Below are positions 2,547-32,000 of a stretch of DNA of 32,000 bases, in pieces. The stretch is from Halomicronema hongdechloris C2206. GTDB lineage: Bacteria > Cyanobacteriota > Cyanobacteriia > Phormidesmidales > Phormidesmidaceae. Numbering within the stretch: the stretch's first letter is position 1; each line of letters begins with the position of its first letter. The position numbers and the translations under genes are program-made. The stretch lies in the NCBI RefSeq assembly GCF_002075285.3, contig NZ_CP021983.2:2340001-2372000 (forward strand). The letters are read 5' to 3'. The notes beneath the pieces were generated by a model. The model saw only the letters and a list, made by a program, of their open reading frames with translations. It was not told the origin of the DNA and did not search any database.

Positions 2547-2957
2547 TTAACCTTCCATTTTGAATTCTGTAGGGTTGTGCCCTTCCCGCAGGGTATTTTG
2601 CATTTTTAATTTCTCTAGCTGCTCCTGTGCCCATTGTCGTAGTTGTTCATTAGGATCATTGACTGCACGATCACCTAATAAGTTTAGAACCTTCAACCGG
2701 CTTGGATATGCACCTAAAAAATCTAGCAACATTTCCATTGATATACTTCTCACACGCCAGTCTGGATCTTGAAGCACACTTTTCTCTAAGTCGAGTAAAA
2801 CATCTTCGCGATCTTTCCATTCTTTCACCAGGGCTTGAATTGCACCTAAGCGTTCTGGCCAGTCCTTAGATTCTAAAAGAGACCTAATCCATAGATAAAT
2901 CTCTGGGAAATGCTTATGGGCACCTCGAAAAATAGCCAGAGCGATCTCAGTATGAGA
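2547..2957 (-). pseudogene. 3' fragment of a HEAT-repeat region, probably the C-terminal end of the NACHT-HEAT gene cut off by the IS
   Basis: The minus frame is open from the IS junction (stop at 2958-2960) to 2547: ..TEIALAIFRGAHKHFPEIYLWIRSLLESKDWPERLGAIQALVKEWKDREDVLLDLEKSVLQDPDWRVRS... The repeated 'A(I/V)QAL..W(K)D..' units match the repeat style of the 4083-4685 segment. No start codon of its own, and low GC. Confidence 0.65.
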
Positions 2958-4092
2958 TCATAAGGTCGGTTTTGTTGAAGCACGCAGGCCATGGGACAGC
3001 AGGGATTCTGGGATATCGAAGAGCGCCAGCAAAAACTGGAGCAAAAGAAGGCGGTACTGAATCGGTTGAATCAACTGGTGCCGTGGGAGACCTTTCGTCC
3101 GATTCTGATGCAGATTCGAGAGAAACCGCGCAAAAGCCAGGCCGGTCGTAACCCCACCGATGTCCTGTTACTCTTCAAGATGCTGGTGCTGCAAAAGCTA
3201 TACAACATCAGCGATGACGAACTGGAATATCAGGTCAACGACCGACTGTCCTTCATGCAATTTCTCGGTTTGGGGCTTGAGGATAGAGTCCCGGATGCAA
3301 CGACGGTGTGGCTCTTCCGAGAACAGTTGCAGCAGCACGGCTTGGTGGAGGCGTTGTTCGAGCAGTTTGGAGCCTATCTGCAAGGGGCAGGCTATGCCGC
3401 CAAGGATGGGCAAATTGTGGATGCGACCTTGATTCCAGTTCCCAAACAACGCAACACCCGTGAGGAGAACCAAACCCTCAAGCAGGGTGAGGTTCCCGTT
3501 GAGTGGCAAGAGACCCCTCATCAGCTCGCGCAAAAAGATGTTGACGCCCGATGGACGAAGAAAAATGGAACGTCCCACTACGGCTACAAAAACCACATCA
3601 ATAGTGATGCCGGCTTTAAGCTCATTCGCCGTTACAGCGTCACCGATGCGTCGGTCCATGACTCGCAGGTCTTGGGCGAGTTGCTCGATGCGGATAATAG
3701 CGGCGATGGACTTTGGGCCGATAGTGCGTATCTCTCCGTGCTGATTGTCGAGGTGCTGAAATTGATAGGGTTTGAGCCGCATATAAATGAACGGGCCTAT
3801 CGCAATCGCCCCTTAAGCGAGGCCCAGAAAACCGCGAATCGAGAGCGCTCCAAAACCCGTGCCAGAGTGGAGCACATCTTCGGAGATGTCGTCACCAGCA
3901 TGGGTGGCAAGGTGGTGCGCAGCATCGGGTTAGCCCGTGCCCAGACCCAGCTAGGTCTGAAAAATCTGGTGTATAACCTGAAGCGGTTTGTGTGTCTCGA
4001 AACCCAACGTGCTGCATCGGCTGAACTGGCAAGATAATCGGACCTAAAGCCGGGAAATCGACTTAAACGTGGTCTTCCAACCCTATTTTTTT
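2927..4092 (+). mobile_element. IS5-family insertion sequence (termini only approximate)
   Basis: A single DDE transposase ORF sits between two AT-rich fragments of one interrupted gene, and the IS body is clearly more GC-rich than those flanks. Candidate ends are GGTCGG (2964) / CCAACC (4082). An 8-nt inverted match AAAAATAG / CTATTTTT lies at 2928-2935 / 4083-4090. TATGAGATCAT at 2951-2961, 40 nt before the ATG, resembles a subterminal motif I recall from E. coli IS5. No clean target-site duplication found. Confidence 0.75.
2991..4037 (+). CDS. IS5-family (IS5 group) DDE transposase
   Basis: 348-aa ORF. The N-terminal region ...LVPWETFRPIL...AGRNPTDVLLLFKMLVLQKLYNISDDELEYQVNDRLSFMQFLGL...PDATTVWLFREQL and the segments ..DATLI.., ..ADSAY.., ..RARVEHIFG.. 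align by eye with E. coli IS5 InsH-type transposases. Confidence 0.9.
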   Translation: MGQQGFWDIEERQQKLEQKKAVLNRLNQLVPWETFRPILMQIREKPRKSQAGRNPTDVLLLFKMLVLQKLYNISDDELEYQVNDRLSFMQFLGLGLEDRVPDATTVWLFREQLQQHGLVEALFEQFGAYLQGAGYAAKDGQIVDATLIPVPKQRNTREENQTLKQGEVPVEWQETPHQLAQKDVDARWTKKNGTSHYGYKNHINSDAGFKLIRRYSVTDASVHDSQVLGELLDADNSGDGLWADSAYLSVLIVEVLKLIGFEPHINERAYRNRPLSEAQKTANRERSKTRARVEHIFGDVVTSMGGKVVRSIGLARAQTQLGLKNLVYNLKRFVCLETQRAASAELAR

Positions 4093-6613
4093 GTCAAAAT
4101 GGGAAGCTTTTTTCGGTGGAATGTCTCGGACTCTCTTTGAGTCACCTTGACGGTCTCAAATGAGACGCCATTAGCTAAAGAAAACTGATTAATCGAGGTC
4201 CCCTTATATTTGTTTCCAATTTCTGTTATTGAGATGATTCTCGAAACTGGGTTTGAGTTAACGTTGACGGCAATTTCTTTAAGCCAACCTAGAATTTCTG
4301 GGGTATTCGTCCAGTGCTTTGAAAAAACTAAAATTGCACAGTAAGGTATACAAGAATCATTTGAGTGTGACAGTGATTTTAGCCAATTCAATTTCTTCGA
4401 GGTGCTGCCCCATGCTCTAACAACTGCATCAATTAATTTTAGAGCAGAGTCTTCATTTAGATAAAAACCGGATTTGATTTCTGACTCCACTTCATCTTGA
4501 ATTATTTTGAGTAGTATATCGCTAATATTTGTGATAATTTCATGGATTTTAATTGATTCAAAGAGCGCAATTAAAAATAATATATGACCTAATCTTTCTC
4601 TGCCAACAAAACGAGCTTCCTCCGGAAGGAAATCTAAGTCATATTTTTTCATTTGATACTGACCCCAGTCAATTTCCTTATGCATTAGCCATTCAAGTAG
4701 TCGACTTGAATACTTAGGAGCTATCTCTCTGTAAATAAGTTTTAAGACTTCGTGCCAGGTTTCGTCTTGCCAGTGCTGGCCAAAGACCTCATCGCGGAGT
4801 TTTTCGAAGCTGAGGGTGCGTTGTTTTTCGAAGCGGTGGACGATTTCGACGGCGCAGAAGTATTCCAGGAAGGTCGGTGCATGAAGCCGTAGGTGTCAGC
4901 GCCGCGATAGCAGAGGATGAAGTTGCGTTCCCGCAATTGCTGAATCAGCACATTGGCCTTTTCGCGGGGGTCGCTGAAGCCCTGGTCACGCAGGTAATCG
5001 GTCACAATGCGGATGAGGCGCAGCATTTCTTGTTTTTCCCGCCGTGCGATCGCATCCATCGGCAAATTCAACCGCTTGTGATCCACATCCCAGTGATACA
5101 GCAGCACTCGGGATGCCTGGTCATAGAGGTCGGCTCTGTCGCGGGGCAATTCCTGGCGTCGGTTCAGGATGGCCATCATGGTCAGCAGCAGAGGATTGTC
5201 GGCCAGGTTTTGGATGGCTTTGGAATTGGCAACGGCATCCTTCAATCTCTGTTTCAGCCGCCCCTTGTCTGGATCGCTGCCCATTGAGAGGTCATACCAG
5301 CGGTCGATGAACTCGTGGATTTCCGTCTCATCTAGCGCTTGAATCGTGAATTGGCGGAACCCAGCGTGCTGGAAGCGTTCCGGGTTATAGCCGATGATGC
5401 GGGAGGTGACCAAAACCCGCGCTAAGGGATATTGCTGGGCAAAGCGGATGATGTCGTCGATGACGGCGGCTTGGGTAGGGCGATCGAATACTTCGTCCAG
5501 ACCGTCGAACATGACCAGGGCAGGATTCTCCAGCAAGTGCTGATGGAGGTGCTGCTGGTCAAATTGCCAGTCTGCACCGCTGCCGCAGTGGAGAAAGTCT
5601 AAGAAGTTAGTAGCCTGGGCTAGGACATATTCCCGCAGCTCGATCAGCAGCGGTAACACCTCGGTTTTGCCTTCCACCCAGTCCAGAGCCAGAAACTGTA
5701 GCAATGTGGACTTGCCGGAACCCGGATCGCCCAGGATGACCGCATGCTGAGAGTCGGCGACTGCTGCCAATACCTTGCGGGCAGGTTGCTGAAAATACTC
5801 GCGGCGATACAGGTCTAACGCTTCGGCAGATAAGTCGGCTTCAAGGTGGCCGTCTTGTTGCAGTTGACGCTTCAAGTCCAGGGGCAGGTCGTAGCGAATC
5901 GGGGGCAGAGCTGCGCGCACGGTTTGTTCAATGAACAGGCGCCAGAGGTGAATGGTATCGGCCTGATAGGTACTGTCGAGGGTGTAGAGCTTCAAGTAGC
6001 CATAGCTGGTCTGCAAGCTGTGGCGATACTTAGCCACATCAAAGCCCGGTGAGAGTCGGGCCGTATTGTCAGCAATTTCCTGCAGCAGATCAGCCTCTAG
6101 GATGGCCCGCAACTCGGTATCGGCCTTGACGATGCCTTTCACCTGAATCACATATTCCTTAGCGACTCCGCGCCAGTCGAAATCCTCGGCGGGAAACTGC
6201 CAGCCGGTTACCTGGTAGCGCTCTATCCAAATACGCTCCAGTTGGGTGTGATCAATCCTTTTGCGGCCAGTCTCAAAGGCTTGGCCGAGACTGGTACAGA
6301 CCGCCGGGTCCCGCACAAATCGTTTTAGGACCGCCTGGTAATGGTGGCGGATGCTGGTGTCGGGCACCTCGTTGAACTGCAGTTCCTTGATAAATCGCTG
6401 CAGGAAAAAGCCGACAGCCTCGGCCATGGGTCGCTTCAGAGTCTCTGCCTGCAGCCGAGCCACGCCGCTATCTAGGCAGTCTCTAAAAAAGTCCTGCACG
6501 TAGCCTTCCAGGACGGGTTTGGCGAGGTCGAGCACCTGACTCAGCACGACTTTGCTAAGCTCAAGGCCGGTGGGGATGGCTAAGAGTTCCAACATGCCAG
6601 CGGTTGGGAGCAA
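4083..6613 (-). pseudogene. NACHT-family STAND NTPase with C-terminal HEAT-like repeats; frameshifted near 4875 and truncated by the IS
   Basis: Walker A GDPGSGKST, Walker B-like VMFDGLDEV, then ..TSRIIGY.. The ORF track frame ends in nonsense after GFMHR. Shifting by one base gives FMHR(T)FLEYFCAVEIVHRFEKQRTLSFEKLRDEVFGQHWQDETWHEVLKLIYREIAPKYSSRLLEWLMHKEIDW, which runs without a stop into the 4083-4685 ORF. Confidence 0.85.
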
Positions 6614-6904
6614 TGGATGGTTGTGTTCACTATGGCATTCCTGTTACCGGAGCGGCTAATCGCCGTATCGGCATGACGATCAATGGTTACCGAGATTAGG
6701 CGTCGTAGACGAGATCCCCGTGACTGCTGACAGGTGAGCCTGAAACTTGATTGATCTCGCTGTAGCCATCTCTGCTAAGGCGTTACTGAGTCAAGCGTGC
6801 TGGTTGCCCCTCGAGGGCACTCCCCATGCAGCCATGACCACAGTCGCAGCGTAAACAGATAGACCTGAGACTCATAGGATCGCGACGATCGCTTTCTGAT
6901 TTGG

Positions 6905-7262
6905 CGAAAAACGTTTAGATTTATAAGTATACTTAAGTGTTTACGACTAATGCTTAAATGTTACTTATACTTACTCAAGTATTTGGCCAATTGCTTAAGC
7001 ATTTGCCCATTTTGAGTCAGCCGCCAGGGAAACCCCCTAAGGATTTGGCTGATTTTTGACTGATTGATTAGTGGTGCTTAAGTTTCAACACTAACATATA
7101 AGCATTTGTCGAAAATGCTTAAGCGTTAAGAGCAAATGCTTAAGCGTTAAGGGCAAACGCTTAAGTTTTTGGAGCCAACTCTTAAGTTTTTGGAGCCAAC
7201 CCTTAAGTTTTAGGGCTAACGTTTGTTGGTTTGGGCCTGACGCTTCAGTCTCAGGAGCAAAT
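6905..7262. repeat. Degenerate tandem array, about 17 units of 21 bp, each centred on CTTAAG (best units GCTTAAGCGTTAAG and CTTAAGTTTTTGGAGCC)
   Basis: CTTAAG or one-mismatch variants start at 6932, 6953, 6974, 6994, 7036, 7077, 7097, 7118, 7139, 7160, 7181, 7202 and 7243. All spacings are 20-21 bp or multiples of that. Near-identical neighbouring units lie at 7112-7222. No frame has both a start and an open reading frame. Confidence 0.9.
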
Positions 7263-7354
7263 CACCGTAAATTTCGGTAGATGGCTACATCAGACGGCTA
7301 AAAGTTCCGAAAAGAAGTTCACAGCACTTGGTCTAGTGTTTCACGTCATTTGAT

Positions 7355-7507
7355 TCATGGGGCGATCAACCCTATCCTCAGCCGCGCCCCATTGGGGTAG
7401 CGACGAATCCACTGTACGTAGGTTTGCTCCGTCCGGTAAGAATAATGCTTCAGTCGAATTGCTTCGCGCACCTGGTCTAGCAGCTTTTTAGGGCGAGGGG
7501 GTTCCAT
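7355..7507 (-). pseudogene. intI: 5' remnant of an integron-type tyrosine recombinase gene (intI-like, N-terminal SAM-like domain only)
   Basis: Own translation: MEPPRPKKLLDQVREAIRLKHYSYRTEQTYVQWIRRY then PNGARLRIGLIAP*. The first 37 aa or so match the N-terminus I recall for cyanobacterial integron integrases (..LLDQVR.AIRLKHYS.RTEQ.Y..WI.R(F/Y)ILFH..). Similarity is lost after about 7395 and no catalytic domain follows. Confidence 0.65.
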
Positions 7508-7568
7508 GACGACTCAACATGCAAGTATCAAATACAACATTAATATACATATGTACTGACACTCCGAA

Positions 7569-7596
7569 GCGGAAGATATGCGGAAGATATACGGAT
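7569..7596 (+). repeat. 11-bp tandem repeat GCGGAAGATAT x2.5; a further copy ACGGAAGATTAT lies at 7673-7684
   Basis: Read directly in the divergent intergenic region between the intI remnant and the first cassette. Confidence 0.85.
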
Positions 7597-7600
7597 CCTT

Positions 7601-7746
7601 GCTGCCTATCTACCCTGCAGAAGGCTATTATGCAGACTGTTCGCTGCCTATCTACCCTCAGAGGGTGATTAGACGGAAGATTATCTGCCTATTCACCTGG
7701 AAGGGGGTATATAGGCAGATTGGATCGATCCAATAAGTTGTTAGGC
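7601..7746 (+). promoter_or_regulatory. attI-like region: three direct repeats at 42-bp spacing, a 9-bp inverted repeat and a terminal GTTAGGC core site
   Basis: GCTGCCTATCTACCCT occurs at 7601-7616 and 7643-7658, with the variant TCTGCCTATTCACCT at 7684-7698. TCTGCCTAT (7684-7692) is inverted as ATAGGCAGA (7711-7719). GTTAGGC at 7740-7746 fits GTTRRRY exactly and is preceded by CAATAAGTT. Confidence 0.55.
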
Positions 7747-7891
7747 GGCTAAATTTCCCTATTGGGAACGGCAGTCTTTCTCACGGTTCAGGCATTAATC
7801 GGCATCAAGATTTCCAGCCTACAGCTAGGGTTAAACGCGCCGCTGCAAGTGAGTGGAGCTAAGATTGAGAAGCAAGTAACTTGCCAGGACT

Positions 7892-8176
7892 ATGACTCTA
7901 AACTTAGATTTGCCACCCGAACTGGAGCAGTACCTCTTGCAAGAAGCCGAGCAGCAAGGTCTATCGGTTGAAGCAATGACCTTACAGCTTTTGACGAATT
8001 CGCTTCAACTCAGGCAACAACAAGCTGAAGCCGTTTATATGCTTCAGTCCTGGATTGACGATGAGGATGTTGAAGAGCAACAGGAGACAGGTGAGTATTT
8101 GGTTCAGGTGCTGGATGAGGATCGGCTTTCTGACCGCAAGTTATTCCCCCTCGAAATGAAAGGGGTTACATGGTAG
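7892..8176 (+). CDS. Antitoxin-like protein of a PIN-type toxin-antitoxin pair
   Basis: 94-aa acidic ORF (MTLNLDLPPELEQYLLQEAEQQGLSVEAMTLQLL...) whose stop overlaps the PIN gene start by 7 nt (ATGGTAG, 8170-8176). The palindrome CAAGTAACTTG at 7872-7882 just upstream is a possible operator. Confidence 0.7.
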   Translation: MTLNLDLPPELEQYLLQEAEQQGLSVEAMTLQLLTNSLQLRQQQAEAVYMLQSWIDDEDVEEQQETGEYLVQVLDEDRLSDRKLFPLEMKGVTW

Positions 8177-8625
8177 AGCGTTTAATCGTATTGGATACAG
8201 GGCCAATTGGCCTGGTTACCAATCCTAAGCTCTCTTCCCAAGGTGTTGCTTGTAACCAGTGGCTTCAGTCTCATCTCAAGTTGGGTGACCGCATAATCGT
8301 TCCAGAAATTGCTGATTATGAAGTGCGCCGTGAGTTATTGCGAGCCAATAAAAAGAAAGGGCTTACTCGGCTAGATAGCTTGTGTCAACGACTTGAATAT
8401 TTGCCGATTGCGACTGCCTCAATGCGGCAAGCAGCTGCACTATGGGCACAGGCGCGACAGCAGGGACAGCCAACGGCAGGGGATAAAACCATTGACGGTG
8501 ACATGATTCTGATTGCTCAGGCTAAGACTCTAGGAGACTCAGATGTGGTGATTGCCACAACTAATGTGGGGCATCTATCGAGGTTTATTGCAGCTGACTT
8601 GTGGCAGAACATTCTTCCCAATTAA
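8170..8625 (+). CDS. PIN-domain (VapC-like) toxin
   Basis: 151-aa ORF with IVLDTGPIG near the N-terminus, ..DGDMILIAQAK.. and ..VIATTNVGHLSRF.., the acidic-residue pattern typical of PIN nucleases. It is translationally coupled to the upstream small ORF. Confidence 0.75.
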   Translation: MVERLIVLDTGPIGLVTNPKLSSQGVACNQWLQSHLKLGDRIIVPEIADYEVRRELLRANKKKGLTRLDSLCQRLEYLPIATASMRQAAALWAQARQQGQPTAGDKTIDGDMILIAQAKTLGDSDVVIATTNVGHLSRFIAADLWQNILPN

Positions 8626-8630
8626 CCGCC

Positions 8631-8717
8631 ACCTAACAACCCGGCTGGAGCGGACTGCTGGGAGATCTTGGATGTGTTGCCAAGGCTGCTTGCAGCCGCT
8701 CAGCCGGAACGTTATGC
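8631..8717 (+). other. attC-like recombination site 1 (87 bp)
   Basis: R'' is ACCTAAC (8631-8637) and R' is GTTATGC (8711-8717). The left arm CCGGCTGGAGCGG pairs with the right arm CCGCTCAGCCGG, leaving one extra G in the left arm. It starts 5 nt after the PIN gene stop. Confidence 0.7.
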
Positions 8718-9008: not shown

Positions 9009-9377
9009 ATGGAAATCCAACGAACTATCTATGTCTTGGCGGTGCCAGATCTTGAAAAATCTGCTGAATTCTTTCGCAATGTATTAGATTTCACTATTCA
9101 CGAGATTGGCGATCAAGGATGGCGAATGTTCGCAAGAGATAATTGTCGAATAATGGCTGGACATTGTCCTGATGCTATTCGACCTAGTGAGCTTGGTGAT
9201 CATTCCTATTTCGGATACTTTGTTGTCGATGATGTAGATGATTACTATGGCATGGTTACCTCAAAGGGTGCAGAGATAATTAAACCTCTCAAGAGTGAAA
9301 AATGGGGGATGCGAGAATTTGGTGTAAGAACTATTGATGGACATCGAATTATGATTGGTCAAGATCTTGAGGAATAA
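9009..9377 (+). CDS. VOC-superfamily protein (glyoxalase/bleomycin-resistance fold)
   Basis: 122-aa ORF with a C-terminal ..KWGMREFGVRTIDGHRIMIGQ.. motif characteristic of glyoxalase/bleomycin-resistance family proteins. This is a cassette type I recall as frequent in integrons. Confidence 0.75.
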   Translation: MEIQRTIYVLAVPDLEKSAEFFRNVLDFTIHEIGDQGWRMFARDNCRIMAGHCPDAIRPSELGDHSYFGYFVVDDVDDYYGMVTSKGAEIIKPLKSEKWGMREFGVRTIDGHRIMIGQDLEE

Positions 9378-9535: not shown

Positions 9536-10762
9536 ATGGAGTGTTTTATGTGGACAATTGAGCAGATCACCGTGGAAGGCGCCGTTTCCTCAGACGCATA
9601 TATGAGTGATGGAAAACCGGTGGTGGGAACTCGCCGTGGTCCCGAAGGAGCCAGTTTTCGTTTGTATGTCACCGGACGCGGCATGCTGGACATCACCGAT
9701 ACCGGCCACCAGCCGGGTGGGCCGCACTACTGGCAGTTGGTTATCAACAATCAGGTTTATTGGTATGACGGCGACGGCGGTCCGCTGATCTGGATCGGAA
9801 CTGATGGTTCCGTTAGGGTGACCGGAGACGGAAACGATGTTGGTTGTCAGTTGCTGCCTCTGCCGGAGATATTGGAAAGCGACCTTGCGCTCCTGCAACA
9901 AATGAAGTCGGAAAAGCTGATTCCCTATGGACAACTCCAACCCGGCGAACGGCCGTATTCCAGCGTGGAAGACATCGCCGCACAATACTTTGCATTTTCT
10001 CATGCGTGGTCGGACTTGGGATTGACGGTCTACGACTGGACCAGCGCCGACTTCTTTCGCATGGACATATTTCATTTGTATCGCTACACAGCGGTGGCTG
10101 GCCAGCCGCTGGATGACAATGACATTATCCAAGGGATCTGGACGTCCAATTGGCCCCCGTACACACCTCAGGATCCGACCTTCATGGCATCCTTGATGAT
10201 GTCGCCAGCTACCAGCGAGCAGCAAGTGGCTGAGCAGTATCAAGACGTGAAACGGCAGATGCAGACCTATCTGGACGCCTTGATGCGATTGACCCGCAGT
10301 TCGATGTACGCTATGCCACGAACGAGCACCTTGGCAAAGCCCATGCTCTACAGCGGACAGGTGGCCATCTCGAACCTGGGACAGGATGCCATGGCCGTCT
10401 ACTTCGAACAGTACCCCGGCAACGCGGGACCCGTCGGATCACCGATGGGCATGTCGATCGATGAAGCACTCCAGGGATTTATGAGCCCGGACAGCATGCT
10501 CACGCTTAAGTCCTTTCTGAGCTTCACTGACAGTGCTCAAGATGCCCAACATTATTCCAACGGAATTATCGTCGAAATGTCACCGCCTGTGGGGGCCGTG
10601 GTCTGGCCACAGTGCCCGTACCTCACTTCGCTGTCCAATAGCGCAACAAAGATCGAATACACTTATGCGCCCGGTAGCCAATGGGAAATCACCGGATCGC
10701 GCAAAGAGACCATCGGGAGCAAGACCTACACAGTCCTCTCGATGCGAGATTGCCTACCATGA
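9536..10762 (+). CDS. Hypothetical protein; the C-terminal approximately 150 aa resemble an ADP-ribosyltransferase (R-S-E type) fold with an atypical triad
   Basis: 408-aa ORF with GC-rich coding-like usage. Motif spacing resembles C3/VIP2-type ARTs: LYSG (aa 271-274, where Y-R-G is expected), FLSFTDS (aa 327-333, an STS-like motif) and KIEYTYAPGSQWEI (aa 372-385, where [QE]xE...G-S-x-aromatic-x-I is expected). Confidence 0.8.
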   Translation: MECFMWTIEQITVEGAVSSDAYMSDGKPVVGTRRGPEGASFRLYVTGRGMLDITDTGHQPGGPHYWQLVINNQVYWYDGDGGPLIWIGTDGSVRVTGDGNDVGCQLLPLPEILESDLALLQQMKSEKLIPYGQLQPGERPYSSVEDIAAQYFAFSHAWSDLGLTVYDWTSADFFRMDIFHLYRYTAVAGQPLDDNDIIQGIWTSNWPPYTPQDPTFMASLMMSPATSEQQVAEQYQDVKRQMQTYLDALMRLTRSSMYAMPRTSTLAKPMLYSGQVAISNLGQDAMAVYFEQYPGNAGPVGSPMGMSIDEALQGFMSPDSMLTLKSFLSFTDSAQDAQHYSNGIIVEMSPPVGAVVWPQCPYLTSLSNSATKIEYTYAPGSQWEITGSRKETIGSKTYTVLSMRDCLP

Positions 10763-12476: not shown

Positions 12477-15407
12477 TTACAAACCTGTGACAAAAAATAC
12501 AGGCAGTAAAATACCGGCAAGCACGGCAGCCATTAGCTTCTGAAACAGGAAGAATAGGCGAGTGCATCCCTCTGACTCTTCGAAGACGAAATTATGGAGA
12601 TGTTCATCCAAGTTAATGATAGGCAGCAAGATATCCAGGCTGAAGACCATCGATAACCAAGCCACGCGAAATCTCCAACCACTAAGCTTTCTTGTTGCGA
12701 AGTCAACAAAAAATGGGACGAGAATAGCAATTGCTAGAATAAAAATAATGATTGCTGGGATTTTTAGATGCGTATACAACGCAGGCACATATAACTGAAT
12801 AGCAACAAGAAAAGTCGCAAGAAATAAGAGAAGTGGCTTAAAAAATAAATGAATAGTTCTTGCCAATCCCTTTCTAGGTCGATTCAAATATGGATATTGA
12901 TGTTCTCTGATCTGATCTTCCTTGAGATTGATCAGATCTAGGGTGCCGTTACATGAACCTTTTTGATCGAAAAACCATTTTCCCGAATCTGGAAAGATAT
13001 TTTGGCCGCAGCCAAATGTCTCAATCTGCTTCGCGTTTATGATCTCAACAAGATTTTTCAGATTCTGAGTGTCTTGATGATGATTGACATAGATATAGTC
13101 AGCATTTTGCCTGCTCACTTTGTCGAGCTTAGATCCCTCAAGTATTTTTTCGAGCTCAAAGTCAGGTTCGAATTTCACATATAGGTCAAGTCTATCGAGA
13201 CCGTCATATGTCCCGATGCTAGATTTTGATTTTAGCTTAAAGAATAATATCTTTGAAATAGAGTCACTATACTTTAAAGCCTGCCTTAGACATATGTTTG
13301 GCACAGAAACTTTGTTGAATAGTGCATCTTCTAGATCTCTCGATTTGATCACCTTCTTGATTAAGTCGGATTGCTTTCTGAGAATTCGTCTAAAGGCAAG
13401 AAAGCCTCCTATCATCCAAACGATGACAAAAAGCCTGAGTGCCTTGAAACGATAGTAACTAAATCCGTATAGAAAATCACTGATGGTGAGTTGTATAAAT
13501 TTAGCGGTAAATCTGCCATTTTGCTCTTTCTCTATGAGCACTTCTAAGCGGTTACGTTTATAGAGGAGGTCTCGTTCCATATCATACTTACCCAATGATC
13601 TGGCAACCATTGCGGCTTGCTCTAGGGGTTGCAGTAGAGATTCAAGTCGTGGTAAAAGCTCACTGTCTAATGACAGGGATTCATCTAAATCCTGTTGTCT
13701 AGTTGATGCTAACCTTATGCTTGAAAGAGTTCTCACTACTCTCTGCCAGGTGGATGGAGCAGCCTTATTGTATTTAGCATCTAAGCAGCTGGTGAGCAAA
13801 CTAAAACCTGCTGAATTAGCCTTTTGATAGTGAAATCTATTTAAATCTATTAAACACTCACCTGATATTTCCTGATCCATTTCCTCATTGTCTGATTTAA
13901 TAATATTAAAACTATTAACCTGAGCGTCTTCTAGGAGTAGATCTATATTATCTGATTCATTTGTTCTTTCCTTAAAGAACAAATTCTGGAATCCTGGCTG
14001 TCTATTCTTGAAATCGAAAACTACGTTACTAGCGACCATATTATCTAAGTCAAGCCTTATTTGATCAGGTGTTTCTTTATCAAAGATAAGCATGAAATCG
14101 TTGATTTCAGAGTCAGATAAGTTAATACTATGATTTGAGAAATCACCACTTAAAATGATGTCGCGACCTTGAAGGGATTCTAAATTTATCTCGGAACTCT
14201 CATTGTTGCTCGCACGTCCATTACCCTTAAGAATGACATTCCTCAAGAAGAGATCACCTTGAAGAGTAATATTATTGATGAAAATACCTCCCTCAAATTG
14301 AGATCCATCCAGATTCAAGCTTCTTAGGAAATTAGACTTATAAAGTCTAACCGATTTCCTGAATACCGAATCCTTTAGCTGTAGTTCTTGTTCGATATCA
14401 GACGATGACAGATCTAACTCTTCGTTGAAATATGCTCCTCGAGTGATAACTGTTCCAGGTAAAGCACTACGAAAGGGCTCTCGTAATAGAATCGTCTTCA
14501 AGAAATTATTGCCAACGGAGTACTTATTTAAGTATTCCTGAAAGTTAATCCGAGATCCTGATTCGGCTTCTGTTTTTTTCTCTGAAAGGTCGAGGACTGC
14601 ATCCCAGAAGGCTTGGTGCTTTTCCTTCAGCAAGCCAGAAAGTTTATTGTAATCTTCCTTATTACTGTCTACTATATTTCTTAAAGTCCCTTCGTTTTCG
14701 TAAATCAAAGATGCAGTTGAGTATTCTTTGTCTGTTTGGCTAGTCAGGATTTGTACGAGCTCAGATAGCTTAATTAGAAATGATTTTTCCTCCGGGCGTT
14801 TAGAGTTATTCTCTATAAGAAATTTGAGAGACGTTTCTAGCGGTACATCTGAAGCCAGATTAAATAAGGCACTTAGTAATTTATCTGATTTAGGTCTCTC
14901 GATGTCTTCTTGCAATGCAGAATTCAACTGAATTCGATACTCTGCAATCAAGCCAGTGTAGTCAAAATTCTCATGATCAAAGTTTTCATTCAGTAATTGA
15001 CTATTGTTTTCTACTAGGTCTCTAATAATTAGGGCACTTAAAAAGATTTTATGGAAATTGGCTTCCTGACCAGCACAGACATGTCGCCAAATCCAGCGTT
15101 CAGGAAACCCCCACGTATCTCTTGCATGCCTCTCTTGAGGAGTTAACTCTTTCGATTTGGTTTCGTGGCGGTCTAATACAATACACTCGAATTGACCTGG
15201 AATTAACTGCGGTGGATAGGGGAATGTCTTAGTGCGCTCTAGTTCAGCAGCCTGTTGCGGTGTATTAGTCTGTTGAGGTGCAGTTGTCGGAGACTGTTGT
15301 GCGAATATTGGAGACCACAGCGATCCTGCTGCAATCGATAGCCAGCAGGCCGATAGTAAAATTGCAATAAATCTATAGGCGATCTGTCTGGTATGGTGAC
15401 TCAGCAT
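12477..15407 (-). CDS. Large secreted/membrane protein (976 aa): signal peptide, helical region, beta-helix/pentapeptide-like repeats, C-terminal multi-TM region
   Basis: An uninterrupted 2.9-kb ORF in very AT-rich DNA (17/60 GC at 13861-13920). N-terminal signal FIAILLSACWLSIAAGSLWSPIFA. Repeats such as LRSLNLDGSQFEGGIFINNITLQGDLFLRNVILKG. Hydrophobic helices occur near aa 650-680 and in the last approximately 150 aa. Confidence 0.8.
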   Translation of the reverse strand: MLSHHTRQIAYRFIAILLSACWLSIAAGSLWSPIFAQQSPTTAPQQTNTPQQAAELERTKTFPYPPQLIPGQFECIVLDRHETKSKELTPQERHARDTWGFPERWIWRHVCAGQEANFHKIFLSALIIRDLVENNSQLLNENFDHENFDYTGLIAEYRIQLNSALQEDIERPKSDKLLSALFNLASDVPLETSLKFLIENNSKRPEEKSFLIKLSELVQILTSQTDKEYSTASLIYENEGTLRNIVDSNKEDYNKLSGLLKEKHQAFWDAVLDLSEKKTEAESGSRINFQEYLNKYSVGNNFLKTILLREPFRSALPGTVITRGAYFNEELDLSSSDIEQELQLKDSVFRKSVRLYKSNFLRSLNLDGSQFEGGIFINNITLQGDLFLRNVILKGNGRASNNESSEINLESLQGRDIILSGDFSNHSINLSDSEINDFMLIFDKETPDQIRLDLDNMVASNVVFDFKNRQPGFQNLFFKERTNESDNIDLLLEDAQVNSFNIIKSDNEEMDQEISGECLIDLNRFHYQKANSAGFSLLTSCLDAKYNKAAPSTWQRVVRTLSSIRLASTRQQDLDESLSLDSELLPRLESLLQPLEQAAMVARSLGKYDMERDLLYKRNRLEVLIEKEQNGRFTAKFIQLTISDFLYGFSYYRFKALRLFVIVWMIGGFLAFRRILRKQSDLIKKVIKSRDLEDALFNKVSVPNICLRQALKYSDSISKILFFKLKSKSSIGTYDGLDRLDLYVKFEPDFELEKILEGSKLDKVSRQNADYIYVNHHQDTQNLKNLVEIINAKQIETFGCGQNIFPDSGKWFFDQKGSCNGTLDLINLKEDQIREHQYPYLNRPRKGLARTIHLFFKPLLLFLATFLVAIQLYVPALYTHLKIPAIIIFILAIAILVPFFVDFATRKLSGWRFRVAWLSMVFSLDILLPIINLDEHLHNFVFEESEGCTRLFFLFQKLMAAVLAGILLPVFFVTGL

Positions 15408-31416: not shown

Positions 31417-31690
31417 GGAGTAGGGAGTGGGAGTGGGGAGTGGGGAGTGGGGAGTGGGGAGGAGTGAAGAGTGAAGAGTGGGAGAGTTAAAAGTGAAGAG
31501 TTAAAAGTGAAGAGTTAAAAGTGAAGAGTTAAAAGTGAAGAGTTAAAAGTGAAGAGTGAAGGAATGACTTTATTACTCGTTACTCGTTACTCGGATTACT
31601 CAATCACCCCATCACCCCATCACCCCTAAGCCCTGCGGGCAGGCTCCGCCAACACCCCATCACCTCATCACCCCATCACCCCATCCCCCA
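31417..31690. repeat. Composite microsatellite block: (GGGGAGT)n, (GTGAAGA)2, 14-mer GTTAAAAGTGAAGA x5, (TTACTCG)3, (ATCACCCC)n
   Basis: Read directly. GGGG runs occur at 31435, 31442, 31449 and 31456, separated by AGT. The 14-mer copies span 31486-31555. C4 runs start at 31607 and continue to 31689. These are heptamer-type repeats like the cyanobacterial STRR family. Confidence 0.9.
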
Positions 31691-31691
31691 T

Positions 31692-32000
31692 CTAAGCCAG
31701 ATCTGCCTGCTTCACCAGATGGGCTTCCAGGAACCAGAGGCGCATGTCAATGGTTCGGGAGATCTCGGTGTAGAGGTCGGCGGTGTCGGCATCACCGAGC
31801 TCATCGGTTTGGTCGATGGCCTCTCGCACATGCTTGGCGTAGATGGCGAAGCGCTCTGCCAAGGCGGCCACATGCTCTTGGCCGTCGATGGCCTCCATTG
31901 GATACTCTGGCAAAATCGAGGCGTCTACGGCCATACGGGCGGTGCCGAGGGCAGTGCCCCCGAGGGCGGTGACGCGCTCGGCCACCATATCGACATAACC
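31692..32000 (-). CDS. dps: Dps-family ferritin-like DNA-protection protein (5' end outside window)
   Basis: ..VDMVAERVTALGGTALGTARMAVDASILPEYP...HVAALAERFAIYAKHVREAIDQTDELGDADTADLYTEISRTIDMRLWFLEAHL is a typical Dps C-terminal half. The frame is open to the window edge. Confidence 0.85.
   Translation of the reverse strand, partial: GYVDMVAERVTALGGTALGTARMAVDASILPEYPMEAIDGQEHVAALAERFAIYAKHVREAIDQTDELGDADTADLYTEISRTIDMRLWFLEAHLVKQADLA

Follow-up and report, generated by a model that had tools for sequence, protein, structure and literature searches.

A phased 21-bp tandem-repeat array between a truncated integron integrase gene and a NACHT pseudogene of Halomicronema hongdechloris, possibly a docking site for a dimeric protein

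Iterons of plasmids P1, F, R6K, RK2 and pPS10 are repeats of 17-22 bp, usually asymmetric, which are spaced by about 21-23 bp. Among repeat centromeres, sopC of plasmid F comprises 12 units, 43 bp long, that each contain an inverted repeat of 16 bp, while parC of pSK41 consists of 20-bp tandem repeats and parC of R1 of 11-bp iterons. Cyanobacteria additionally carry heptamer repeat families called STRR, reportedly described by Mazel et al. in 1990. The array considered here shows likenesses to all three kinds of system. It is located in a stretch of 32,000 nucleotides from the chromosome of the cyanobacterium Halomicronema hongdechloris C2206 (hereafter the window; chromosomal positions are window coordinates + 2,340,000), between the remnant of an integron integrase gene (intI) and a NACHT pseudogene, and its 21-bp units carry the palindrome CTTAAG.

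Exact CTTAAG hexamers were encountered at 12 sites in the window, eight of which were clustered (6932, 6994, 7077, 7118, 7139, 7160, 7181 and 7202). When one mismatch was allowed, 14 sites were found in 6880-7290, two of them being internal GTTAAG hexamers at +7 (7125 and 7146, in units 7118 and 7139). A first-pass annotation, made from the bare sequence, had already pointed to this clustering and to a phasing of ~21 bp, and both were confirmed: none of 5000 composition-preserving shuffles equalled the array in site count or in phasing, and site periodicity displayed a Rayleigh R of 0.77 at 21 bp, with a maximum of 0.81 at 20.7 bp. Copies recurred every two helical turns over ~310 bp, and phase was kept within 1 bp over this distance, also across slots devoid of the motif. 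The individual sites listed in that annotation were recovered with the exception of 7097, where TATAAG departs from the hexamer by two mismatches; similarly, its figure of about 17 units holds for the number of slots in register, but only ~12-13 of these 17 were filled by a recognisable unit (see Table 1 for the empty ones).

Tandem Repeats Finder (TRF) delineated two adjoining 21-bp arrays (7113-7165 and 7156-7211) with 93-94 % matches, and the near-identity claimed for neighbouring units was real. Entries for the same array are present in the tandem-repeat table of the H. hongdechloris genome paper, namely AAATGCTTAAGCGTTAAGAGC at 2347113-2347165 and CTTAAGTTTTTGGAGCCAACC at 2347160-2347211 (PMC6416890, Supplementary file 1). 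The AT-rich left end was likewise verified (Table 1). The truncated intI and the NACHT pseudogene are separated by a non-coding spacer of 801 bp (6596-7396), of which the array fills ~330 bp, and the earlier statement that it replaces the body of the integrase gene was overstated. The array region itself is non-coding, as had been proposed, since it lacks a usable start and a protein homologue; the accompanying argument that the plus frames are interrupted by TAA applied to all but one of them, which remained open over 61 codons across the strong block (~7100-7282) without a usable start. Open frames of the array, concatenated into pseudo-peptides, had no homologue among 5.8 billion proteins. 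The locus is thus a genuine phased 21-bp tandem-repeat array with a conserved, palindrome-containing motif of 11-16 bp, and it is partly decayed and locally re-amplified.

Alignment of the units in register uncovered a conserved core in the form of a directional 11-mer, CTTAAGYRTTW. With up to one mismatch, this 11-mer was matched 20 times in the window vs 2.7 times expected, and 14 of the 20 matches fell within 6932-7212. Five units matched it on both strands, thereby forming the 16-bp palindrome AAAYGCTTAAGCRTTT. In the left block it was kept in all four units (two exact, two with one hexamer mismatch) while the flanks had diverged. Taking the eight degenerate units together, the YRTTW positions located 3' of the hexamer agreed with the strong block in 32 out of 40 cells (18.7 expected; P ~1e-5), and the outer ten columns agreed in 24/40 and 22/40 vs ~17 expected, which is near chance. 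Because the degenerate units were picked by their hexamer, the hexamer columns are biased, those outside the hexamer being free of this effect. Uniform neutral decay would erode all columns alike; conservation concentrated on the 11-mer argues for constraint.

Because of this uneven conservation and of the strict phasing, we favour, with a rough probability of about 0.42, the reading that the array is a multi-site docking pad on which a sequence-specific dimeric protein, encoded elsewhere in the genome, would cooperatively coat one helix face. Such a protein, probably of the helix-turn-helix or ribbon-helix-helix type, would bind each unit on the same helix face and would spread into a nucleoprotein filament, in the manner of Rep on iterons or of ParR and SopB-type proteins on repeat centromeres. 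New units would be made by slippage or unequal exchange, a process that would generate near-identical neighbours. We infer the binding, and an effect of it, from these features of the array. As advanced in general form by the first-pass annotation, a phased landing pad for a dimeric DNA-binding protein is still plausible and finds support in the YRTTW agreement; none of the three specific roles that were attached to it (replication-origin iterons, partition site or recombinase core sites) was supported.

Several observations weigh against docking. Owing to the ascertainment bias in the hexamer columns, the YRTTW result alone is free of bias. No candidate binding protein was found among the open reading frames (ORFs) of the window scanned against Pfam, NCBIfam and PHROGs, and the search for a homologous array outside this genome gave none, so that evolutionary conservation of the locus lends no support. 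The array is surrounded by pseudogenes and an insertion sequence (IS), a setting in which selection is least expected. With a genome-wide total of 722 tandem repeats, a tandem repeat at this place is ordinary in itself, and near-identical neighbouring units fit a neutral minisatellite equally well.

Table 1. Parts of the array and features of the neighbouring DNA, in window coordinates
Feature	Coordinates or sequence	Strand	Description
Strong block	7113..7217	+	Five contiguous 21-bp units, two sub-families
Strong block, sub-family U1/U2	AAATGCTTAAGCGTTAAG(A/G)GC	+	U1-U2 pairwise identity 20/21
Strong block, sub-family U3/U4/U5	(A/C)AAC(G/T/C)CTTAAGTTTT(T/A)GG(A/G)GC	+	U3-U4 pairwise identity 19/21
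Left block	6927..7010	+	Four degenerate in-phase units; hexamers at 6932, 6953, 6974, 6994
Sparse middle	7011..7112	+	In-phase units at 7036 (CCTAAG), 7077 (CTTAAG), 7097 (TATAAG); slots 7015 and 7056 empty
Decayed right end	7218..7262	+	Slot 7223 empty; final unit GCTTCAGTCTCAGGAGCAAAT at 7242
AT-rich stretch	6896..6990	.	70.5 % AT vs 47.8 % for the window; overlaps left end of array
intI remnant (integron integrase)	7397..7507	-	Codons 1-36 only
NNH2-NACHT-HEAT pseudogene	2583..6595	-	5' end faces array; frameshift near 4874 and IS5-family insertion
Cassette 1	7892-8625		94-aa ORF and PIN pair
attC-like imperfect palindrome 1	8631-8717		Directly after PIN cassette; starts TAACAACCC(G/T)G..GCGGA
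Cassette 2	9009-9377		Glyoxalase/bleomycin-resistance family protein
attC-like imperfect palindrome 2	9384 to ~9500		Directly after glyoxalase cassette; starts TAACAACCC(G/T)G..GCGGA; looks degenerate

The minisatellite explanation is a serious possibility, though not one that we would put first. Here, the 21-bp unit with its heptamer sub-structure (GCTTAAG / CGTTAAG / AGCAAAT) would have expanded by replication slippage or unequal exchange, a process favoured by hairpin-forming palindromes, and would now be decaying and functionless; filamentous cyanobacteria typically have many tandem repeats, and this would be a further one. It accords with the abundance of tandem repeats in this genome (~one per 7.7 kb; PMC6416890), with the presence of STRR-like heptamer arrays in the window at 31417-31692 and with the GTTAAG found at +7 from CTTAAG in U1 and U2. 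The most similar units are adjacent (20/21 and 19/21), which is the signature of recent local duplication; both flanking genes are dead; and unrelated 21-bp CTTAAG arrays are common (at least 120 loci), those of Nostocales among the matches listed having mostly ordinary neighbour genes and none in common. What speaks against this explanation is that the conservation of degenerate units is focused on the 11-mer instead of being even, that phase stays within 1 bp over ~310 bp despite slots lacking the motif, and that a second locus, situated 2.36 Mb away, retains 18/21 of the unit.

This second locus is another 21-bp tandem repeat of the same chromosome, listed as two copies of GCTTAAGCATTAGGAGCAAAC at 4,710,967-4,711,015 (PMC6416890, Supplementary file 1), and the 18 identical positions refer to the window unit 7117-7137 (GCTTAAGCGTTAAGAGCAAAT). 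No further locus bearing these motifs was among the entries returned when the published table of tandem repeats was searched by terms (PMC6416890). As judged from sequence likeness, the array is one member of a small dispersed family, which occupies at least two sites in the H. hongdechloris chromosome, and adjacency to intI is thus not a defining property. Its head-to-tail, non-coding units, found at more than one site of the genome and apparently not tied to a particular neighbour, correspond to what is called a satellite. Since no connection of the array with integron biology was seen, the idea of a new element class residing at an integron platform received no support; a dispersed satellite without positional association, which the annotation had itself set against its proposal, is partly what was encountered at 4,710,967.

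Next to the docking pad stands a more specific proposal that makes use of both loci. In this proposal, the array at 2.347 Mb and that at 4.711 Mb would both be chromosomal cis-sites for a cyanobacterial protein polymerising on 21-bp-phased AAAYGCTTAAGCRTTT units, i.e. a centromere- or iteron-like platform without linked partition or replication genes; we regard this as unlikely. Such a platform could serve the segregation or organisation of a polyploid chromosome, or the silencing of islands of foreign DNA. If a protein does coat the units, they would give access to an uncharacterised factor that organises or silences DNA in a chlorophyll-f cyanobacterium, the recognition sequence being ready-made and two genomic targets being already known. 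If not, the array is one of the 722 tandem repeats and a mere marker of a decaying defence and integron island.

Plasmid iterons and repeat centromeres are among the described systems closest to the array. Like the iterons of P1, F, R6K, RK2 and pPS10, it consists of short direct repeats arranged on one helix face, with near-identical as well as degenerate copies and an adjacent AT-rich stretch; five direct units are exactly 21 bp apart (two helical turns), ~12 are in phase, and size and spacing fall in the range of 17-22-bp repeats placed about two turns apart. Like sopC of F and parC of pSK41, which are palindrome-bearing tandem repeats, it provides tandem units in helical phase, five of which include the palindromic 16-mer, a dyad-symmetric site suited to a dimeric protein and to a cooperative filament. 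Foreign and decayed DNA moreover form a visible mosaic at the locus, where GC content is distinct and an IS5 element is present. The array could on these grounds represent replication-origin iterons, for which the 70.5 % AT stretch would be the unwinding element, or a partition centromere, in either case left by a plasmid-like or integrative element that was degraded in the chromosome, and such roles had been put forward from the sequence alone. We consider them quite unlikely.

In contrast to true iteron arrays, no adjacent Rep initiator gene was found in the ORFs scanned, and in contrast to repeat centromeres neither was a linked partition operon (NTPase plus centromere-binding protein): genes of the Rep, ParA, ParM, ParB, ParR or relaxase type were all missing from this set, in which the sole partition-like signal came from the 94-aa ORF that accompanies the PIN toxin in a cassette and that was weakly matched by a PHROG 'partition protein' (E 8e-4). 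DnaA boxes were not enriched, the lone one-mismatch DnaA-box-like site corresponding to the background rate (0.94 per kb). Internal palindromes such as the 16-bp one are unusual among iterons, and ~12 units over 310 bp exceed a typical origin. Unlike the described centromeres, the array is chromosomal and lies between two pseudogenes, and no sequence similarity to a known centromere was found. When the array and a synthetic multi-unit query were searched by blastn, 72,556 plasmids (PLSDB) yielded chance matches only; blastn found nothing similar to the array region among 50,697 phages, and pattern scans of IMG/VR returned either no match or unrelated perfect repeats. According to the genome paper, H. 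hongdechloris has one circular chromosome with oriC at ~5.12 Mb, and no plasmid was found (PMC6416890).

The comparison was extended to arrays found elsewhere by scanning genome collections for CTTAAG-N15-CTTAAG-N15-CTTAAG, a pattern that retrieved at least 120 loci. The matches listed were mostly unrelated 21-bp repeats, several of them probably coding, and about ten were cyanobacterial. Nostocales arrays among these listed matches displayed 4.5-10 copies of units such as TTAAGCCTTAAGGTTAGAGCA, sometimes beside heptamer repeats, and were neighboured by ferredoxin, photolyase, amylase or toxin-antitoxin genes. As CTTAAG and the 21-bp period were imposed by the search pattern, they prove nothing about kinship of the arrays. 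Over the 15 unconstrained spacer positions, none of the 158 arrays compared matched Halomicronema units at more than 10-11, which is chance level. Metagenomes were scanned for two GCTTAAGCRTTT copies 21-42 bp apart; the 38 loci obtained were heterogeneous, had ordinary neighbour genes and in no case showed spacer homology.

Cyanobacterial satellites, represented by STRR families and by the Nostocales 21-bp arrays (e.g. TTAAGCCTTAAGGTTAGAGCA x9 in Scytonema), are comparable to the Halomicronema array in kind: they are chromosomal, intergenic, present at more than one locus and apparently without a consistent neighbour, and the 21-bp unit contains CTTAAG and has a length of 3 x 7 bp, a heptamer sub-period being visible. 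Neither the Nostocales arrays nor a described STRR family were found to be homologous to the Halomicronema array, spacer identity being at chance. Nostocales arrays were also more uniform (77-96 % matches), whereas the degenerate units of Halomicronema display motif-specific conservation. Arrays of this general kind are routine in bacterial, and especially cyanobacterial, intergenic DNA. In the plasmid, phage, viral, metagenome and genome collections searched, a homologue outside the H. hongdechloris genome was, at the level of sequence, not demonstrable.

Some of the retrieved loci had features of their own. In Scytonema hofmanni UTEX 2349 (locus L029), two same-orientation arrays of about nine TTAAGCCTTAAGGTTAGAGCA copies (3645-3832 and 5411-5591) bracketed a toxin-antitoxin-like DUF433/DUF5615 pair, and in two Nostoc loci (L041 and L048) a similar array was situated beside a small ORF and PIN_3 pair. 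The metagenome-assembled genome of Tolypothrix brevis (L082) harboured a 21-bp CTTAAG array x6.9 between the heptamer arrays GTCAAGG x17.7 and TCTTGAC x14.1 (3743-4117). An uncultured cyanobacterium represented by a 590-kb contig (L061, 5735-5929) displayed an array of ten units of the GCTTAAGC type, phased at 21 bp, in which AAACGCTTAAGC and TTCTGCTYAAGC alternated to form a super-unit of 42 bp. This array was intergenic, between a gene for a Uma2-family nuclease on one side and ORFs for a membrane protein and a transposase-like protein on the other. It was rejected as a relative of the Halomicronema array: its 5' flank bears resemblance, but spacer identity was only 9/15. Finally, metagenome loci L121, L124, L125 and L138/L154 carried, in intergenic DNA, the palindrome (A/C)NYGCTTAAGCRTTT two or three times with a spacing of exactly 22 bp, next to unrelated genes (MBOAT, S13 peptidase, YicC/OEP and an AraC-type hybrid regulator); these copies look like operator pairs of a regulator in non-cyanobacterial genomes.

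Both genes bordering the array are dead, intI being truncated and the NACHT gene a pseudogene. The loss of intI similarity that had been placed near 7395 was located at 7397 by tblastn, the remnant displaying 86 % identity to Kovacikia IntI over amino acids 1-36, and blastn gave the same end point. Pfam recognised Phage_int_SAM_4 at amino acids 9-37, and no further intI fragment was found within the 32-kb window. To the right of the remnant, attI-side repeats are followed by cassettes, each of which precedes an attC-like site starting with TAACAACCC (Table 1); the integron beside the array is real but dead.

This neighbourhood, i.e. the intI remnant together with at least two attC-like sites immediately to the right, is the only likeness between the array and attI or attC sites, and nothing else speaks for the notion that the units are recombination core sites used by IntI. 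The integron core fits attributed to them, including GTTAAGC, could not be reproduced: GTTAAGC is absent, and neither GTTRRRY nor RYYYAAC was matched on either strand in 6890-7270. The bipartite imperfect palindrome of attC type is missing from the array, the attC-like sites of this integron being different in sequence, and the position does not correspond to attI or attC either, as the array lies 3' of intI, beyond its break and on the side opposite to attI. The other family member is moreover far removed on the chromosome. This notion can practically be discarded; the array does not belong to the integron machinery and its adjacency looks coincidental.

On the left side, residues 1-596 of the closest homologue of the NACHT protein aligned with 6595-4874, residues 597-809 with 4874-4254, after the frameshift, and residues 838-987 with 3017-2583. 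Between the last two segments, an IS5-family transposase ORF (2991-4037) splits the C-terminal HEAT-repeat end. The segment 4254-4874 was low in GC (0.34-0.40) and much more divergent, with 37 % identity, the N-terminal part reaching 79 %. The array shares its leftward orientation with the NACHT gene and the intI remnant, and it is found 310-670 bp upstream of the NACHT start on the same strand. Position and orientation would suit a cis-regulatory operator or silencer of this STAND NTPase gene, which we nevertheless judge very unlikely. The gene is a pseudogene and the array is far from a promoter-proximal position. Four close homologues (~76-79 % identity) have upstream spacers of only ~67-160 bp without a CTTAAG array, which argues against a NACHT feature, and DNA homology to the locus of the closest homologue (L161) begins inside the coding sequence.

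A structured non-coding RNA transcribed from the array was given hardly any credence. Its predicted fold was far more stable than those of shuffled sequences (z of -5.1 and -6.1 for the two strands), but such stability is the automatic outcome of a repeating palindrome. Rfam was unmatched at gathering thresholds over the whole window and at E up to 1 in 6500-7900, and the array holds no promoter-like site, the single promoter-like match in 6400-7900 being located at 7627-7654.

Two further candidates were rejected. Transposon ends with Tn7-like or Mu-like subterminal sites, terminating at the intI break (7397), were dismissed as ~12 same-orientation units over 310 bp are too many. An inverted second array was not encountered in the rest of the window by repeat and motif searches, and the transposition genes of the window belong to the unrelated IS5 only. 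The Pho box, with the consensus PyTTAAPyPy(T/A), was ruled out by the G at position 6 of the array motif.

The attI-side intergenic region (7569-7717) displayed repeats of another type. GCGGAAGATAT was repeated 2.5 times at 7569-7595, and the 12-mer TGCCTATNYACC occurred in four copies vs 1.1 expected (7603, 7645 and 7686 on the plus strand, 7706 on the minus strand). These could be accessory binding sites of IntI or promoter elements of the dead integron. Only the first ~88 codons, with an in-frame stop, could be recognised in another decayed and unannotated intI, which was encountered on plasmid pn1 of Nostoc sp. UHCC 0926 (locus L159, 3845-4108) and which is not accompanied by a CTTAAG array.

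Past the recognisable cassettes, ORFs of 408 amino acids (9536-10762, plus strand) and 976 amino acids (12477-15407, minus strand) had no match in Pfam, NCBIfam or PHROGs. The right end of the window (31417-31692) was densely occupied by STRR-like short tandem repeats, namely GGAGTGG x6.6, GAGTGAA x14 (also readable as a 14-mer x6.7), TTACTCG x3, ATCACCCC x3 and CCATCACC x5.6.

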